This document shows, in pieces, positions 1,797 through 34,291 of a stretch of DNA of 64,000 bases (position 1 is the first letter of the stretch; every line of letters starts with the position of its first letter). The DNA is taken from the IMG/VR virus record IMGVR_UViG_3300017917_003366. One strand, 5' to 3'. Under the pieces are notes generated by a model. It did not search any database. It saw nothing but the letters and a program-made list of their open reading frames with translations, and had not been told where the DNA came from. This DNA is from a virus (Duplodnaviria > Heunggongvirae > Uroviricota > Caudoviricetes). Both the position numbers and the translations under genes were made by a program.

Positions 1797-3178
1797 GTTG
1801 TTGTGTTTATCATTAATACATTATTTAACCCAAATGGATTTTCTTGGGTACCTTCTATTTTAAGTTTTTCCATTATTTGTTTAAAACCATCTGACTTATA
1901 ATCAATTTTTCTTTGTTGCATCTCTGTAACAAATCTTTTTTCATTTTTTGCGGTAGTTGCACCTTTAGCCCAAGTACCATTCACAAACCCTTCGTCGGTA
2001 TGAGATAAACAGTAAAACGAACCTTCTCTTCTGTATGGTAAAATGTTACCAATCACATTGATGTCTTCAGTTCCGTATTCTATGTTTTCATGGTCGATTT
2101 CAAAGTATTCATTACTATAATCGTAATCCATCACCAAATCATTCTCTTCGTTATAGATTTTTATTTCCGCAACTTTACCTTTAAAATAGGTATTTTGATT
2201 TGGACAAAATCCAACAGTGAATGGTCTGACAGAATCAAAACTTTTCATATCTCCAATATAAATTGATTCATTCTCTTTGATACCGTTGATATTCGTTTCT
2301 AACTCATCATTCACATAGAAATATAATTTACCTGTTGGTTTATCGTATTTGTATGTCACCCTTGTCCACAACCCTTCTTGTCTTTTTGCCCAATTATATT
2401 TCACATCACCGGTTTTATCTGTACCCAAGAATGTAACCGCTCTTGAATTGTTGAATGATAAACCCCATGTGTTTCCACCTTCTTTTCTGAGTATCGGATA
2501 TTCTATGAATTTTCTTGCGGGGTCACCAACTAACCATATGGGTACCTTTTCATTTTGTTGTTCGGGATAGAATAATACACTAACCGTGTGAGTATTATTC
2601 AATGCAGTACTTATTTCTCGATTACAACCCAACCTTAATGATGAGTTCTCTCCATTGAATTCGATGTATCCTCGGTCTTTATATTGTTCACTTATTTTAT
2701 ATTCAACATAGTTTTCAAAGTAACATCTCCAAAACAAATCGTCATCTTCTTGACCCCAATCCCAATATTCATTTGAGTAACCGTTGGTTCTTTCAACATG
2801 TTCTTTAGTGAATAAAACAACTCCACCGAAATACTGGTCATAACCCAAACCATACTGGTATTTTGACAACTTAGTGGCAATGTGTATTGGATTCTCCTCA
2901 GGATATGAATAATCGGGTAATGTATCCATATGTTTTGTGTAAGCCAACATATCTACGTCATGCCAAGCGATATAATCACAACCATCTTCAAATGCGTATT
3001 TCGCAGCAATATTCTTCATCATACCTCTATTAAAAAGATTGTCATCAACTTGATGTCCCACATAAAATTTATGGTCAATTCCTCTTTCATTTAGGTATGA
3101 AGAAAGATGTGGAACCAATCTATCGAGATGCTCCTTTCTATTTCTATATGGTATACAAATTCCTAATTTATGTTTCAT
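1793..3178 (-). CDS. GT7 (beta-1,4-galactosyltransferase-like) glycosyltransferase with inserted LamG/ConA-like domain
   Basis: IPYRNR, FNRG..KN, HDVD (DxD), YFGGV, NGYSNEYWDWGQEDDDL; LamG-like segment about aa 165-365; GT7 tail (LSH..., KSDG) resumes after it. Confidence 0.88.
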   Translation of the reverse strand: MKHKLGICIPYRNRKEHLDRLVPHLSSYLNERGIDHKFYVGHQVDDNLFNRGMMKNIAAKYAFEDGCDYIAWHDVDMLAYTKHMDTLPDYSYPEENPIHIATKLSKYQYGLGYDQYFGGVVLFTKEHVERTNGYSNEYWDWGQEDDDLFWRCYFENYVEYKISEQYKDRGYIEFNGENSSLRLGCNREISTALNNTHTVSVLFYPEQQNEKVPIWLVGDPARKFIEYPILRKEGGNTWGLSFNNSRAVTFLGTDKTGDVKYNWAKRQEGLWTRVTYKYDKPTGKLYFYVNDELETNINGIKENESIYIGDMKSFDSVRPFTVGFCPNQNTYFKGKVAEIKIYNEENDLVMDYDYSNEYFEIDHENIEYGTEDINVIGNILPYRREGSFYCLSHTDEGFVNGTWAKGATTAKNEKRFVTEMQQRKIDYKSDGFKQIMEKLKIEGTQENPFGLNNVLMINTTT

Positions 3179-4584
3179 ATTCCTACAACTACATGTATTT
3201 GTTGTTTAACTTTTGAAAGAGAATGTTCAACAAAATCACAATTAGATAAACCATCTTCTTTTGTGTTTCTGTATCCTTTCTGTACCTCATTGTAAAACTT
3301 TAATTGATTATATCTTGTCATATCACTCTTCCATCCGGTCTTAACGAATCCATTCTCTTCATGGGTTAATAATTCAAATGTTGATTTTCTTCTAAATGGA
3401 ACATCGATTGTTTTTGATTCAGAATACGATTCACCAACAATTTCACAGTTATAAATTTCACCATCATTATCTCCACACAAGTCAATTAATTTATAACCCC
3501 TAATGAATTTAGAATCGTAGTAAAGTATCAACGCGTGGTCAGATGAGTATCTTCCAAAACTTTGTGTTAAACCAAAGTATTTGTTATTCGATATCTCCCT
3601 GATTTCCGAATATGGTAATTCTTTATTGAATACTGCAAATGAACTAATCAAACCTCTGTAATAATTCTGGTCTCTTTTTCTTGTTGGGTCACCGACACCT
3701 AAATAAAAGAATTCTTCCTTCTCATATTTGTGAAGTGTTCTATAACTTTCCTGTGAAACCAAATCACCATCTTGATAGAATTTAATTAGGTTATCGTTTG
3801 GATTAATGGTAACCGCTACGTTGGTTCTGTAGTTTGTTTTGATGTTTGAATATTGGTAGATGATATTTCTACCCCCATCAAATATTTCTAATGTGTATCG
3901 GGCGTAAGAATTATATGTTACAGTGAAATCATAACCGGCAATTGAGAATACGGAATATTTGTCATCCATTTTTTCGTGGTCACAAATAAACTCATCAGGA
4001 AAGAATGAAATAAAGATGGTAAACTCCTCTCTTTGTTTGAAGAAGTTCTTACCTCGAACATATGCATCAACTCCATTGAATTTAAGTGATGCAACATTAC
4101 CTCCCTTCATTTCAATTTCTTTAACATCCAATGGAATACCATTTATCTTACATCTATGTAAAAGGTCGGTATCTTCATATCCCCATCCCCAATAATCATT
4201 TGAGTATCCATTAATGTGTTCAAACATGATTACAGGAAATATTGTAACTCCACCAAAGTATTCATCAAATACAATTCTTTTTGTTTCACCAATGAAATCG
4301 GTTGCCATTTGAACCGGTACATCTGAATATGAATAATCAACATCAACCGGTATCATATCCACATCATGAAATGCAACATAATCACATTTATTTTTCTTAG
4401 CATATAGAAACCCTACATTCAACAGTTTACCTCTGTTAAATGCTTTACCATCATCTTGTTCAACCACAATTAATTCAAAATCAATTCCTTTTTCATTTAG
4501 ATAGGGAATGATTTTTTTCTTGAATGTTTGTAGGTGTTCAAATCGGTCACGATAGGGAACTATAACACCAAGTTTCTTATCCAT
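3175..4584 (-). CDS. GT7 glycosyltransferase paralogue with inserted LamG/ConA-like domain
   Basis: VPYRDR, FNRGKLLNVG, FHDVD, YFGGV, NGYSNDYWGWGYEDTDL; then LamG (FNGVDAYV, VAVTI, FYQDG, YYRGLISSFAVFNKEL); then GT7 tail (LTH..., EDGLSN). Confidence 0.9.
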   Translation of the reverse strand: MDKKLGVIVPYRDRFEHLQTFKKKIIPYLNEKGIDFELIVVEQDDGKAFNRGKLLNVGFLYAKKNKCDYVAFHDVDMIPVDVDYSYSDVPVQMATDFIGETKRIVFDEYFGGVTIFPVIMFEHINGYSNDYWGWGYEDTDLLHRCKINGIPLDVKEIEMKGGNVASLKFNGVDAYVRGKNFFKQREEFTIFISFFPDEFICDHEKMDDKYSVFSIAGYDFTVTYNSYARYTLEIFDGGRNIIYQYSNIKTNYRTNVAVTINPNDNLIKFYQDGDLVSQESYRTLHKYEKEEFFYLGVGDPTRKRDQNYYRGLISSFAVFNKELPYSEIREISNNKYFGLTQSFGRYSSDHALILYYDSKFIRGYKLIDLCGDNDGEIYNCEIVGESYSESKTIDVPFRRKSTFELLTHEENGFVKTGWKSDMTRYNQLKFYNEVQKGYRNTKEDGLSNCDFVEHSLSKVKQQIHVVVGI

Positions 4585-23591: not shown

Positions 23592-23621
23592 AAAAAAAAA
23601 GAGGAATTTAATCCTCTTTTT
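23592..23621 (-). terminator. Rho-independent terminator ending the MTase-AAA-trx-grx operon
   Basis: 10-bp stem AAAAAGAGGA/TCCTCTTTTT, 6-nt loop, T run on the minus strand; overlaps the glutaredoxin stop. Confidence 0.8.
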
Positions 23622-31312: not shown

Positions 31313-31870
31313 TTACGTTGTTCTTCTATCTCTTAACATGGGTTCCATTGATGAGATGAATGTTGGTTTAAACTTTGATAGTTTATCGAACATTTCTAAT
31401 GTCTCTGATTCAATTGGTAACATGTCTGAATTAATATATAAACCACTTTCGTTTCCTGCAATGAGTACAAAATTGATATCTAAATCAGGAATTGACCCAT
31501 CTAATCTAATTTGTTGTTCATCGATGGTAAAACCGGGATTTAAATCTCCTAATTGTGCAACTTGTTGTCTAAATCCATCAATTAACTGACTGATACTATT
31601 TTTCTCGTCATCTTTTAATTTGACATCCTCTTGGTCAGTTGAAATTAATTTTACTTCAACCTCATTTACTACCTCAACGTTGTCATATTTTTCTTGGTAT
31701 GATTCAGGACTTGGTACGTCGTCACCGGGTTCTGATGGTTGTGGTTCTGAAGGTTGTACATCTTCAGATAAGATTCTTGCACTTTTTGATTGTTTTGATT
31801 CGTTAAGGGTTCTCATTGTAGAGAGCATTCCCTTAATCTCATCATAAGCTGTTTGTTTCTTTGTATTCAT
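31313..31870 (-). CDS. Hypothetical acidic protein (185 aa)
   Basis: N-terminal IKGMLSTMRTLNE segment, acidic body; TATTTATA upstream. Confidence 0.72.
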   Translation of the reverse strand: MNTKKQTAYDEIKGMLSTMRTLNESKQSKSARILSEDVQPSEPQPSEPGDDVPSPESYQEKYDNVEVVNEVEVKLISTDQEDVKLKDDEKNSISQLIDGFRQQVAQLGDLNPGFTIDEQQIRLDGSIPDLDINFVLIAGNESGLYINSDMLPIESETLEMFDKLSKFKPTFISSMEPMLRDRRTT

Positions 31871-32465
31871 CTTTTAAAAATATTCTAAAATTAAACGAAG
31901 GGTTTATATCTGTATAAATATTTGAAAAATTGGATTTACAGACAACTCCGTGGAATTTTAAGACATTTTCCAAATAACCTTGAGAGGGCACTGACTGATA
32001 TGGGATATCATTAAGATTACATAGGTGTTCACAGAGTTTAGCAATTGAGTCAAGTTGACTCTCAGGATACCTGTCCCAGAAGTAATAATTCCTCCAATTA
32101 CGAGCAAACGGTTCCGACCTGTATGGGTCACCAATCCAATTATTCATGAATCCCGTGATGGTATTCTTATTTAACCAACCAAGATTCTCAATTGCGATTT
32201 TGATGAACTGTTTATCAATTTTAGGTTCATCAAAGGTATTTGAATAGTATTTGGTATCGAAGAGTTGATATACGGTACCTAACTTAGTTACGATGAAATG
32301 AGGTACCTCATCATAGTTACCGTTCCTCCTGTGTCTGATTTTATTGATAAAATCGTCAGCCCTTCTTCCCGTATCGTATAGAAATATTTGAGTTTTTTTA
32401 GATTTTCTCTTAGTAATGTTAAGTGTCTTACTATCTAAACCTTCTACGTTGTGTATTTCCAACAT
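31842..32465 (-). CDS. Amidase_2 (N-acetylmuramoyl-L-alanine amidase)-like protein with degenerate Zn site
   Basis: PHFIVTKLGTVYQLFD, IAIEN, YPESQLDSIAKLC, DINP; LYDT replaces the HHT motif and VVCK replaces the second His motif. Confidence 0.7.
   Translation of the reverse strand: MLEIHNVEGLDSKTLNITKRKSKKTQIFLYDTGRRADDFINKIRHRRNGNYDEVPHFIVTKLGTVYQLFDTKYYSNTFDEPKIDKQFIKIAIENLGWLNKNTITGFMNNWIGDPYRSEPFARNWRNYYFWDRYPESQLDSIAKLCEHLCNLNDIPYQSVPSQGYLENVLKFHGVVCKSNFSNIYTDINPSFNFRIFLKDEYKETNSL
31913..31920 (-). promoter_or_regulatory. TATTTATA putative late promoter
   Basis: Inside the amidase-like gene, about 42 nt before ATG 31870. Confidence 0.45.
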
Positions 32466-32649
32466 TCCTTGTTATAATTTTTCTCATCGGAGCCTGTCTT
32501 ATTGTTGGTGTTTCTTCCACGATGTCATTTACAGGTGTCTCCTGATTATCATCAGATTCCCAATAAATGGGGTCTTGATTAGTAGAAACCTCGTTTTCCG
32601 AACCATAATTTTGAGTATTTTGATTGGGTTGGGATTCGGTTTCTTCTAG
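32431..32649 (-). other. ATG-less 72-codon reading frame continuing 32646..34004 in the -1 frame (candidate frameshift extension)
   Basis: A10 run (GAA AAA AAA AAC TAG) at the stop; -1 frame reads LEETESQPNQ...NTQRRRFR* and fills the 180-bp gap. Confidence 0.65.
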
Positions 32650-34004
32650 TTTTTTTTTTCTTCCTCCGATTCGTCCGGGGGAAGTGTTGTTTCGGTCACC
32701 TCAGGTGTTGGTTCTTCTATTATCTCTTCTTCCTCAGCAATCGGCGTGGGGTCGTCTTGTGGTTGGACTTGTAAATCTATTGTCAATACATCATCGTCAA
32801 TATCTTCGTCTTCCTCAAAAACTTCCTCCTCAACCACCGGTGTTGGTGTTGGTTCAGGTGTTTCGATTGGATTAAGTGCCATGTCCAATTCTTGAGTATA
32901 TTCAAAACCATATGGTTTCTCCGGCTCAACCTCATTTACTTCCTCAGGGGTCGGTGTTTCAACTACCTTAACTTCTTCGGGTGTTGGGGTCTCGGTAATC
33001 TCATTAATAACCTCCTCAGGAATAAATCCGTCATATCCATCTAATTCTGTATCTTCAGGGATTAAATCGTTTTCATACGATTCAATGGGTGGTTGAGGGG
33101 GTAATAAACTTTCATCAAAAGAATACCCGTAATCTTCTCTCTCTTCGTATTGTTCTTTTATTGCTTCTAATGCCTCTTCAGTTATTGGTAAAGTATTTGG
33201 TGTCGGTTCAATCGTCTCTTCTTTTGGTTTCTCATCGTGTGTTAAGTCCCAAAAATTTTCATTGATTATTTGATTGAATTCTTCAGGAATATCCTGAGTT
33301 GAAATGTTTAACTCTTCTTCGACTTGAGGGGTGACTTCGGGGGTAACTTGTGGGGTCCTATTTAAGAATTTTTCAAGTAATACCAAATCCTCTTCCGATA
33401 ATCTTATTCTTGATACTTCACCAACAATATCCTTTGCTTCAACTGTTGGGACCTCTTCTTTCTTAATTGGTTCTTCAACAACATTATCGTTTGGTTGAAC
33501 GATATTTTCATTTATCGGTTCATTCGACGATATTTCTTTATTTTCCTGTGTGAACTTAACCAACATGTGGAGGAATGAGAGTGAGATTAGTGGTAACATA
33601 CCACCAGCAAAAAATGCTAAGAATCTTTTATGACCCACAAGGTCAGTTGGTTCTACTCCTATAAACTCAATTAGTGGAGAAACGAGTTCAACCCACGAAA
33701 TGAAAGAAGGGCTGTTTACATCAATGTATGAATATGCAAAATAGATATTACCGATAAATTGTACCAACGTCACAATACCAAATGGGAAATAAACTTTCTT
33801 ACCCATATTGGCAGATATTGCTGCAAGTGCCGACAACGCGGCAATTTCAACACCTATGGAAAGGTATATCGCCCAAGTTACGGGATTAGATATACCATAC
33901 CATTTTGTTACGTGTGAAATCGATACAATGGCAACAGTTATAATCGGAATTAAAAATGCCGATATAATAAGTGTCTTGTAATTTCTATTAAACCAATTCT
34001 TCAT
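32646..34004 (-). CDS. Membrane protein: about 4 N-terminal TM helices plus long acidic Pro/Glu-rich tail
   Basis: Hydrophobic segments in aa 12-150; ETPTPEEV-type low-complexity C-terminus. Confidence 0.8.
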   Translation of the reverse strand: MKNWFNRNYKTLIISAFLIPIITVAIVSISHVTKWYGISNPVTWAIYLSIGVEIAALSALAAISANMGKKVYFPFGIVTLVQFIGNIYFAYSYIDVNSPSFISWVELVSPLIEFIGVEPTDLVGHKRFLAFFAGGMLPLISLSFLHMLVKFTQENKEISSNEPINENIVQPNDNVVEEPIKKEEVPTVEAKDIVGEVSRIRLSEEDLVLLEKFLNRTPQVTPEVTPQVEEELNISTQDIPEEFNQIINENFWDLTHDEKPKEETIEPTPNTLPITEEALEAIKEQYEEREDYGYSFDESLLPPQPPIESYENDLIPEDTELDGYDGFIPEEVINEITETPTPEEVKVVETPTPEEVNEVEPEKPYGFEYTQELDMALNPIETPEPTPTPVVEEEVFEEDEDIDDDVLTIDLQVQPQDDPTPIAEEEEIIEEPTPEVTETTLPPDESEEEKKN

Positions 34005-34291
34005 TAATTCAACTTACCTTCTAATGTCTTTATTTCATTGTCAATTTGAGTTTGTCTGTTGACATCTAAGATTTTTCTATCTGTTGATTGAATCATTCTT
34101 TTTTCTGCCTTCAAACCCTCAATCTGTAAACGAAGATTTAATTCTTCTTTTGTGTATGTGGAATCTTTAATTGATTGAACCTCTTTTCTCATTTTAGAAA
34201 GTTCTCTTCCGTCACCACAGCTCTTGAAAAACCCAAGTAGGGCAATAACAAGAACAATTACTGTAAAGTTATTTTGTATGAACTTTTTCAT
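34004..34291 (-). CDS. Small membrane/lipoprotein-like coiled-coil protein
   Basis: Hydrophobic N-terminus ending FKSCG, then coiled coil; TATTTATA upstream. Confidence 0.65.
   Translation of the reverse strand: MKKFIQNNFTVIVLVIALLGFFKSCGDGRELSKMRKEVQSIKDSTYTKEELNLRLQIEGLKAEKRMIQSTDRKILDVNRQTQIDNEIKTLEGKLN

Follow-up and report, generated by a model that had tools for sequence, protein, structure and literature searches.

An A10 run behind a covarying hairpin in a phage membrane-protein gene: a probable site of programmed transcriptional slippage with three predicted C-terminal isoforms

Programmed slippage of RNA polymerase in bacteria is, to our knowledge, documented for a handful of genes (Thermus dnaX, type III and type VI secretion genes and insertion sequence (IS) elements), and the phage recoding that we know of is mainly that of tail chaperone and capsid genes. 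Here we describe a candidate slippage site in a 64,000-nucleotide (nt) stretch of DNA from a virus of the Caudoviricetes (IMG/VR record IMGVR_UViG_3300017917_003366), referred to below, at its full length, as the window. The site is a run of ten A residues (A10) at the 3' end of ORF0, an open reading frame (ORF) for a membrane protein of 452 amino acids (aa). Comparison with relatives suggests programmed recoding at this run, probably by hairpin-assisted transcriptional slippage that would give three isoforms of the protein with different C-termini, one ending just after the run and two continuing in the -1 and +1 frames.

Several described systems share parts of this arrangement. The tssM1 gene of Citrobacter rodentium has an A11 run, and its transcripts carry 10–15 A's and give two length variants (PMC4256274). 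In this gene and in tssM of Yersinia pseudotuberculosis the poly-A run also lies just before a premature stop in a gene for a membrane protein, and the polymerase adds A's to produce truncated and full-length variants with different C-termini, without a Shine-Dalgarno (SD) sequence or a downstream signal (PMC4256274). The phage locus is unlike tssM in that the gene is unrelated, a covarying hairpin is present and a second alternative frame is conserved, and it is known from its sequence alone. In Thermus thermophilus dnaX, tau and gamma arise by slippage on a 9-nt run, with about 50% of each product (PMC5009743). The phage site resembles dnaX in its homopolymer run and in the multi-subunit RNA polymerase that would transcribe it, and three loci in which the two coding parts are fused in frame (L065, L066 and L019) share the dnaX layout, with the long form in frame and the stops of the other frames close by; however, the alternative frames of dnaX merely truncate the protein, whereas each alternative frame of the phage gene adds a conserved C-terminus of its own.

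For the transposase of the Roseiflexus IS630 element, slippage is driven by a hairpin that adjoins the motif on its 5' side (Penno et al. 2015, as presented in PMC5009743). The phage site is like this element in having a hairpin directly 5' of the motif, placed for the RNA exit channel and for shortening the hybrid. The element differs in that its motif is heteropolymeric (T5C5) and that slippage there deletes one base and cannot do without the hairpin. At the phage site, unlike IS630, an A-run of hybrid length could slip alone, and the main productive event would be the insertion of one A. The use of three frames is described for Ebola GP, where three products (sGP, GP and ssGP) come from 70, 25 and 5% of transcripts (PMC5009743). 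As in Ebola GP and in paramyxovirus P/V/W editing (PMC5009743), the phage gene would combine one stuttering site, a common N-terminus and three C-termini in all three frames, although those systems depend on RNA-dependent RNA polymerases of animal RNA viruses, whereas the phage case would involve a DNA-dependent bacterial polymerase and a double-stranded DNA phage. The literature that we searched yielded no example from bacteria or phages in which all three frames are used, and no paper that describes this site or this membrane-protein family.

The features on which the argument turns are the following:

32659..32650, minus strand (T10 on the plus strand): A10 run, candidate slippage site
32646..34004, minus strand: ORF0, the 452-aa membrane protein, short form, ending ...EEEKKN and then TAG
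32646..32648, minus strand: TAG stop of ORF0, created by the conserved Leu-Glu (CTA GAA) that opens the -1 extension
32649..32434, minus strand, stop at 32433..32431: -1 frame extension, 72 codons
32650..32582, minus strand, stop at 32579-32581: +1 frame peptide TRRNRIPTQSKYSKLWFGKRGFY, basic/aromatic
32660..32684, minus strand: RNA hairpin CUUCC(C)CCGG-ACGAA-UCGG(A)GGAAG, ending with the base directly 5' of the A-run

Read from 34004 to 32646, ORF0 has the 3' end GAG GAA GAA AAA AAA AAC TAG. The -1 extension reads LEETESQPNQ...IYWESDDNQ...TPTIRQAPMRKIITRNVGNTQRRRFR up to its stop (it can also be written LEETESQPNQ...IYWESDDNQETPVNDIVEETPTIRQAPMRKIITRNVGNTQRRRFR, again up to the stop) and includes an acidic linker and an IYWE motif before it ends in the basic tail RNVGNTQRRRFR; it occupies a gap of 180 nt and overlaps the start of an Amidase_2 ORF by 32 nt. 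The probability of an open -1 frame of 72 codons, given the composition, is about 0.006. The A10 site is the sole run of at least ten in the window and no other window gene is broken at a homopolymer, but one such run is no more than chance would give (3.75 expected in shuffles of the 64 kb); the significance of the site comes from its conservation across relatives.

We took 114 loci from viral and metagenome contigs and sought the tail motif in any frame, so that the sample carries no gene-call bias. They contain 34 distinct junction contexts, of which 31 are split (ORF0 and the tail lie in different frames) and 3 are fused. The split contexts, which come from independent metagenome assemblies, have A10 in 29 cases and A11 in two (L002 and L088), with the tail in the -1 frame throughout; in none of the distinct contexts is it in the +1 frame relative to ORF0. 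The ORF0 stop follows the run by 0–9 nt in every split context, and the window in which a shift is possible is just 16–22 nt in most. The flanks of the run vary freely (GAGGAAG-A10-TTAG, GATGTTG-A10-CAATTAA, GATGATTT-A10-TCATAA and others), as does the phase of the run within ORF0, and in the tabulated split and fused loci the run is never shorter than ten, though a -1 ribosomal shift needs seven bases only. Thirteen assemblies of one phage all have A10, and run length is uniform within groups of near-identical assemblies (13, 6, 5, 4 and several of 3) with the exception of one pair.

The tail is fused in frame in six proteins (P0022, P0038, P0073, P0091, P0098 and P0102), and all three fused contexts retain a run of A10 or A11: L066 and L067, two independent assemblies, have A11; L065 has A10 and an additional T outside the run, after it; and L019 has A10 and is in frame. 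A tree built from the membrane domain unites the loci with the run in one monophyletic clade (100% support), in which the split state is the commonest and the three fused tips are scattered among split tips (L066 is sister to the split L069 with 97% support). Together with the conservation of the run and tail, this pattern excludes both a sequencing artefact and a decaying pseudogene. An earlier, sequence-only reading of this DNA had described a 452-aa protein ending at A10 and TAG, a 72-codon -1 extension with a basic tail, and a 180-bp gap filled by that extension, which runs into an amidase-like start; all of this holds, on the minus strand, with the amidase identified as PF01510. Its proposal that a programmed -1 shift or slippage at A10 lengthens the protein by 72 residues is supported by relatives, since both the in-frame stop and the -1 ORF are kept with the run in 31 distinct contexts, some other relatives being fused; the homopolymer assembly error that it named as the alternative does not agree with homologues that keep A10 and the -1 tail.

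Some individual loci deserve mention here. L019 (IMGVR_UViG_3300008262_000014, 3001-4570), a fused gene of 521 aa, has two separate in-frame A10 runs (...SEEKKNDI... and ...EELKKKEIE...), and slippage at the first of these would truncate the protein after 4–5 residues. L020 (4086-4538) has a -1 extension of 151 codons, twice the usual length, that is rich in Glu, Asn and Ile and ends in the same basic tail, while its +1 frame peptide is only 14 codons long and of a different type. The aromatic motif (D)P/L-(I/L)YWE(S/N), at 32530-32560 of the window in the -1 frame, recurs in several lineages that cannot be aligned, including the fused P0091 and P0102. L113 has A9 (3157-3165) and L114 has A10 (3157-3166) in contigs that are 99.96% identical across 5.2 kb; the A9 contig comes from SRR3184736, and the Logan assembly of the same sequencing run encodes a protein of the A10 type; the difference reflects either variation in run length among the reads or a mistake of the assembler. 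We had considered L113 as a natural in-frame variant of the medium form described below, but withdrew it since the same read set assembled elsewhere gives A10.

The +1 frame of the DNA behind the run is conserved as well. A homologous +1 peptide occurs in 30 of the 34 contexts, with the consensus RRxRVP....[SG]K[LR]WFG..G; the consensus of another clade is PLKHGR[YF]SI[IL]xFG, and FG is invariant in 22 lineages. The open stretch of the frame has a median length of 22 codons, where 7–12 would be expected from its own stop density elsewhere, and over the same DNA the identity between lineages is 39% for the +1 peptide and 28% for the -1 frame. In the window, inspected by eye, the +1 frame has no Met or start codon between the upstream stop and the run. 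We classed each substitution in the extension by its effect in both frames, NS being non-synonymous in the -1 frame and synonymous in the +1 frame, and SN the reverse, with the following counts:

Dual-coded segment, all pairs: NS 669, SN 311
Rest of the extension, all pairs: NS 466, SN 952
Dual-coded segment, 14 non-overlapping pairs: NS 92, SN 48; p=2.5e-4, with NS>SN in 14/14
Rest of the extension, 14 non-overlapping pairs: NS 51, SN 128; p=8e-9

The dual-coded segment is the first 21–36 codons of the extension, and substitutions there follow the +1 frame; beyond the +1 frame stop they peak at codon position 3 of the -1 frame. The odds ratio between the segment and the rest is 4.8 (Fisher test on the 14 pairs, p=3e-11). 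The dominant coding frame thus changes from +1 to -1 exactly at the +1 frame stop, a pattern of substitution that shows selection on both putative alternative-frame products, and the +1 peptide, being under purifying selection by this measure, is probably the C-terminus of a third, medium product. The extension might also have been a separate gene, but we rejected this candidate: there is no ATG at its start, TTG and GTG codons are only scattered through it, and two lineages lack any start codon.

The third conserved element lies on the other side of the run. In the window the hairpin CUUCCCCCGGACGAAUCGGAGGAAG (32684..32660) has a predicted stability of -10.2 kcal/mol and abuts the run with a gap of 0. 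An uninterrupted stem of at least 5 base pairs (bp) that ends at position -1 is found in 27 of the 34 contexts, compared with 15.5% of background positions in the same genes, and at least nine different covarying stems are represented (CTTCC/GGAAG, CAACATTAG/CTGATGTTG, CTTTATCTG/CAGATGAAG, CTTCGTCA/TGACGAAG, CAATTAACTC/GAGTTAGTTG and others). Swapping the 3' arms among lineages abolishes pairing (0 of 20000 permutations match the observed sum). In a subset of ten sequences whose stems share one geometry, compensatory changes occur at 7 of 9 pairs, pairing extends to 94.4% of cells (69.5% in shuffles), and the covariation score is 0.671 against 0.219 (0/500 shuffles); slid controls collapse. 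A stem-loop directly 5' of the motif that is maintained by covariation is what characterizes hairpin-stimulated slippage of the Roseiflexus IS630 type, and the aligned stems indicate that the phage locus has one. The GGAGG that the sequence-only reading had noted is indeed 7 nt upstream of the A_AAA_AAC heptamer (3 nt from the A10 run), but its suggested role as an SD-like stimulator does not stand, as it lies within the 3' arm of this covarying hairpin. The fused, in-frame A11 lineage L066 (3707-3757; L067 is identical) has no 5' arm, CTTCC being replaced by ACCCC, and its split sister L069 retains the arm. The loss, seen in this one lineage, would make sense if slippage is less needed where the long form is made by default.

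We propose the following sequence of events. When the host RNA polymerase passes the ten A's, its entire RNA:DNA hybrid of 9–10 bp would be rA:dT, and the nascent-RNA hairpin would fold directly behind the hybrid, so that the transcript may slip on its template. The hybrid of RNA polymerase is 9–10 bp long, and runs of nine A or T give efficient slippage in vivo (PMC5009743). The messenger RNA (mRNA) pool would then hold A10, A11, and A12 or A9 transcripts, and ordinary translation would give three proteins that share the four-helix membrane domain and the acidic linker. The short form (A10, 452 aa) would have the C-terminus EEEKKN. The long form (A11, one A added, 524 aa) would continue through a second acidic linker to the basic tail, with the predicted junction peptide EEEKKKLEETESQ. 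The medium form (A12 or A9, about 475 aa) would have the basic/aromatic C-terminus ...RRNRIPTQSKYSKLWFGKRGFY and the predicted junction peptide EEEKK(K)KTRRNRIPTQSK. In the fused lineages, slippage at the retained run would still give the other two forms.

The run, the hairpin and both alternative frames are conserved among the relatives, and the locus has the sequence features by which slippage sites are recognized: a run of at least about nine A or T at a frame junction (A10 or A11 in all 34 contexts), and alternative-frame ORFs that are conserved, lack a start of their own, are under purifying selection and have fused homologues. A population of transcripts with different numbers of A's would explain together why the run is as long as the hybrid, why there is a hairpin, why both alternative frames are conserved and why fused lineages keep the run. 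From these comparisons we infer that the polymerase and not the ribosome slips, and that its slipping would set the isoform ratios. The sequence-only reading had left the choice between frameshifting and slippage open and had expected two isoforms at a set ratio; polymerase slippage is now favoured over ribosomal frameshifting, and the short and long forms are retained but probably joined by a third, as there is a conserved peptide in the +1 frame too.

Programmed -1 ribosomal frameshifting of the classical kind, at A_AAA_AAC or A_AAA_AAA and as seen in dnaX, IS3 and the phage G-GT tail chaperone, would account for short and long forms only. The heptamer is in zero-frame phase in every context and the tail is always in the -1 frame, which suits such a shift, and some segments downstream of the site in the sub-clade of the window fold more stably than shuffles (z=-3.2 for the window and -3.7 for L085). 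However, ten A's are conserved where seven would suffice, and downstream folding is heterogeneous, from 0 to -22 kcal/mol, with essentially none (0 to -3) in several lineages; a conserved downstream stimulator was not found, the consensus fold of ten relatives being -0.9 kcal/mol without covariation or a compensatory pair. An SD stimulator is also unlikely: GGAGG is confined to one sub-clade, unrelated stem sequences take its place in other clades, and an SD-like 4-mer is present upstream of 8 of the 52 window genes and absent from the other 44. The conserved hairpin directly 5' of the site would be melted by the ribosome, and it has been reported that hairpins on the 5' side attenuate -1 frameshifting. 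Nor would such a shift explain the selection on the +1 frame peptide, and we consider ribosomal frameshifting unlikely as the account of this site.

Length changes of the run in the DNA itself could act in two ways. In phase variation the run would change during replication and sub-populations would have different default isoforms, with no recoding at the RNA level. Genomes are indeed found in all three registers (the majority with a short ORF0, L065, L066/L067 and L019 long, L113 medium), and the near-identical L113 and L114 differ by one A, SRR3184736 having given both versions in two assemblies; but run length is otherwise uniform within near-identical groups, the alternative frames are under purifying selection even where they are out of frame, and a covarying RNA hairpin beside the run has no role in replication slippage. 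Phase variation alone is quite improbable on these grounds, and is compatible with transcriptional slippage, as occasional DNA changes would reset the default isoform and such changes clearly happen, as the fused lineages and the A9/A10 pair attest. The run length could instead be a sequencing or assembly error, the true genome having A11 and a single ORF of 524 aa. Homopolymers are error-prone and one pair of assemblies does disagree by one A, yet more than 70 loci from different projects and assemblers concur on an out-of-frame length; A11 is called correctly where it is present (L066 and L067, independently), and in L002 and L088, where the run is A11, a -1 shift is required all the same; L065 gains its frame by the extra T outside the run; and neither the hairpin nor the +1 peptide would be explained. 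We regard an error as scarcely credible. Stop-codon reassignment was set aside, as the ORF0 stop is TAG in some lineages and TAA in others and the window is dense under code 11.

Several observations weigh against transcriptional slippage into three isoforms. All the arguments for slippage are comparative, and a legitimate A_AAA_AAN heptamer is present in all contexts, so that the ribosome may contribute to the -1 product. For the RNA polymerase of Escherichia coli, slippage has been reported to be less ready on runs of A than on runs of T (PMC6260861). The hairpin is missing or displaced in 7 of the 34 contexts, and the ten sequences scored for covariation were picked for their common geometry, which the stem-frequency and arm-swap tests were not. 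The +1 peptide is missing or different in four lineages (L019, L020, L026 and L027), and the pooled dN/dS (ratio of non-synonymous to synonymous substitution rates) over the whole -1 extension is 0.58, just moderately below 1, as would be expected of a disordered linker. Finally, the A9/A10 assembly pair indicates that run length is imperfectly stable or imperfectly called.

The protein in which the site occurs begins with a domain of about 160 aa that contains four predicted transmembrane helices, followed by an acidic linker rich in Glu, Pro, Thr and Ile. An AlphaFold2 model of the ORF0 product (predicted local distance difference test, pLDDT, 70) places helices at residues 9-36, 41-64, 68-93 and 122-159, and 49 columns are invariant in the first 170 residues of the family, including polar residues inside the helices. 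There are 2542 database homologues, all viral and none named. Among the best 120, 96 end in E..KK(K/N) plus 0–2 residues, even at about 50% identity, and six are longer with the C-terminus RNVGNTQRR(R/K)FR. The family is found in none of Pfam, PHROGs, NCBIfam or a PDB profile search; a fold search of the PDB and the ESM Atlas with the pLDDT-70 model gave no meaningful match, and the language-model atlas yielded unnamed viral clusters only. The DNA of the locus has no match among GenBank phages, and a protein search gave a single distant one, in a 462-kb uncultured phage. Distant homologues, with membrane domains 45–55% identical, are 204–276 aa long, lack the run and have a basic tail in frame (for example KMKRFGK or NKLRRQ); a profile comparison of these C-termini with the +1 peptide or the -1 tail was uninformative for peptides so short. 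The membrane-protein gene that carries the site is a core gene in a clade of large, uncultured freshwater phages with contigs of up to about 330 kb.

The genes on either side of ORF0 are these:

31842..32465, minus strand, ATG at 32465: Amidase_2 gene (N-acetylmuramoyl-L-alanine amidase-like), 207 aa, probable endolysin
32434..32465, minus strand: dual-coding overlap of the long-form end and the amidase start, 32 nt
34004..34291, minus strand: protein of 95 aa whose N-terminal segment is hydrophobic (by eye) and whose stop overlaps the ORF0 start

The amidase matches PF01510 in Pfam (E=2e-7, 31.9 bits against a cut-off of 26) and has the same neighbourhood in relatives. A gene of 94–95 aa upstream of ORF0 is a constant neighbour in the clade, the 95-aa protein having a weak match to phrog_25409, and the run-less relative L034 has an upstream ORF of comparable size (96 aa). 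A sigma-70 gene and a ClpP-like gene lie further upstream, and the membrane-protein gene is always between the 94–95-aa gene and the amidase. The minus strand of the window is densely coding under code 11. In the 25 nt ahead of the 52 predicted starts the leaders are rich in A and T and show an excess of A at -1 to -3, which fits an SD-independent host such as one of the Bacteroidota. Elsewhere in the window an A9 run (23592-23600; GCAAAAAAAAAGAGG on the plus strand) lies within a gap of 63 nt between two minus-strand genes.

The amidase ATG is 32 nt ahead of the stop of the extension in 18 of 20 lineages and 29 nt ahead in the other two. Where the tail RNVGNTQRRRFR overlaps the amidase N-terminus MLEIHNVEGL the DNA is almost invariant, though the flanks of the lineages cannot be aligned, and changes within the 32 nt are equally rare in both frames (7 synonymous and 15 non-synonymous against 6 and 14). 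Ribosomes making the long form would stop 32 nt inside the amidase gene, and slippage may in this way couple amidase translation to the shift. In Shigella spa13-spa32, similarly, the C-terminal extension that depends on slippage reaches across the start of the following gene, and slippage affects the expression of that gene (PMC5009743); the systems are unrelated, and for the phage we infer the coupling from the overlap.

The position of the gene raises the question of a role in lysis. Lambda makes its holin and antiholin, S105 and S107, from dual translational starts, and the two small proteins differ at the N-terminus. The phage gene resembles this pair in that at least two forms of a membrane protein, differing in charged terminal residues, would be made beside an endolysin gene, and is unlike lambda holins in the size of the protein (452–524 aa) and in a membrane domain far more conserved than is usual for holins. 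The four predicted transmembrane helices, the Amidase_2 gene that follows directly and the basic tails of the two alternative frames would suit a holin-like role, which we put forward only as a hypothesis; the large size, the unusually conserved membrane domain and the run-less relatives, which have no recognizable amidase downstream, speak against it. The next gene in these relatives (L030:3786-4316, L034:3827-4351, L040:2187-2723 and similar) encodes a Cys-rich protein of 175–180 aa that starts ...NLNEICDCCGGYENQP...; it matches nothing in Pfam and is not similar to the amidase by BLASTP. One could imagine a three-way transcriptional 'dial' in a lysis module, in which stuttering would set the proportions of tail-less, membrane-seeking basic/aromatic-tailed and long-tailed proteins in the manner of holin and antiholin and, via the overlap, the amidase level, and would thereby time lysis. 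We offer this as a possible but doubtful extension of the proposal; if it were true, it would be the first case outside RNA viruses in which co-transcriptional stuttering brings all three frames into use.

A practical consequence is that gene callers truncate the membrane protein in about nine of ten relatives and leave 120–450 nt as a seeming 'intergenic' gap. The case would add to the known examples of slippage a large and widespread phage family, with 2542 homologues of which dozens have the site, and it combines an A-run of hybrid length, a covarying nascent-RNA hairpin and conserved peptides in both alternative frames. The class of mechanism is known, whereas this combination of features and the use of three frames by a cellular polymerase would be new. 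If the three products are confirmed, a cellular RNA polymerase would be usable in the way that Ebola and paramyxoviruses use theirs, to read one gene in all three frames.

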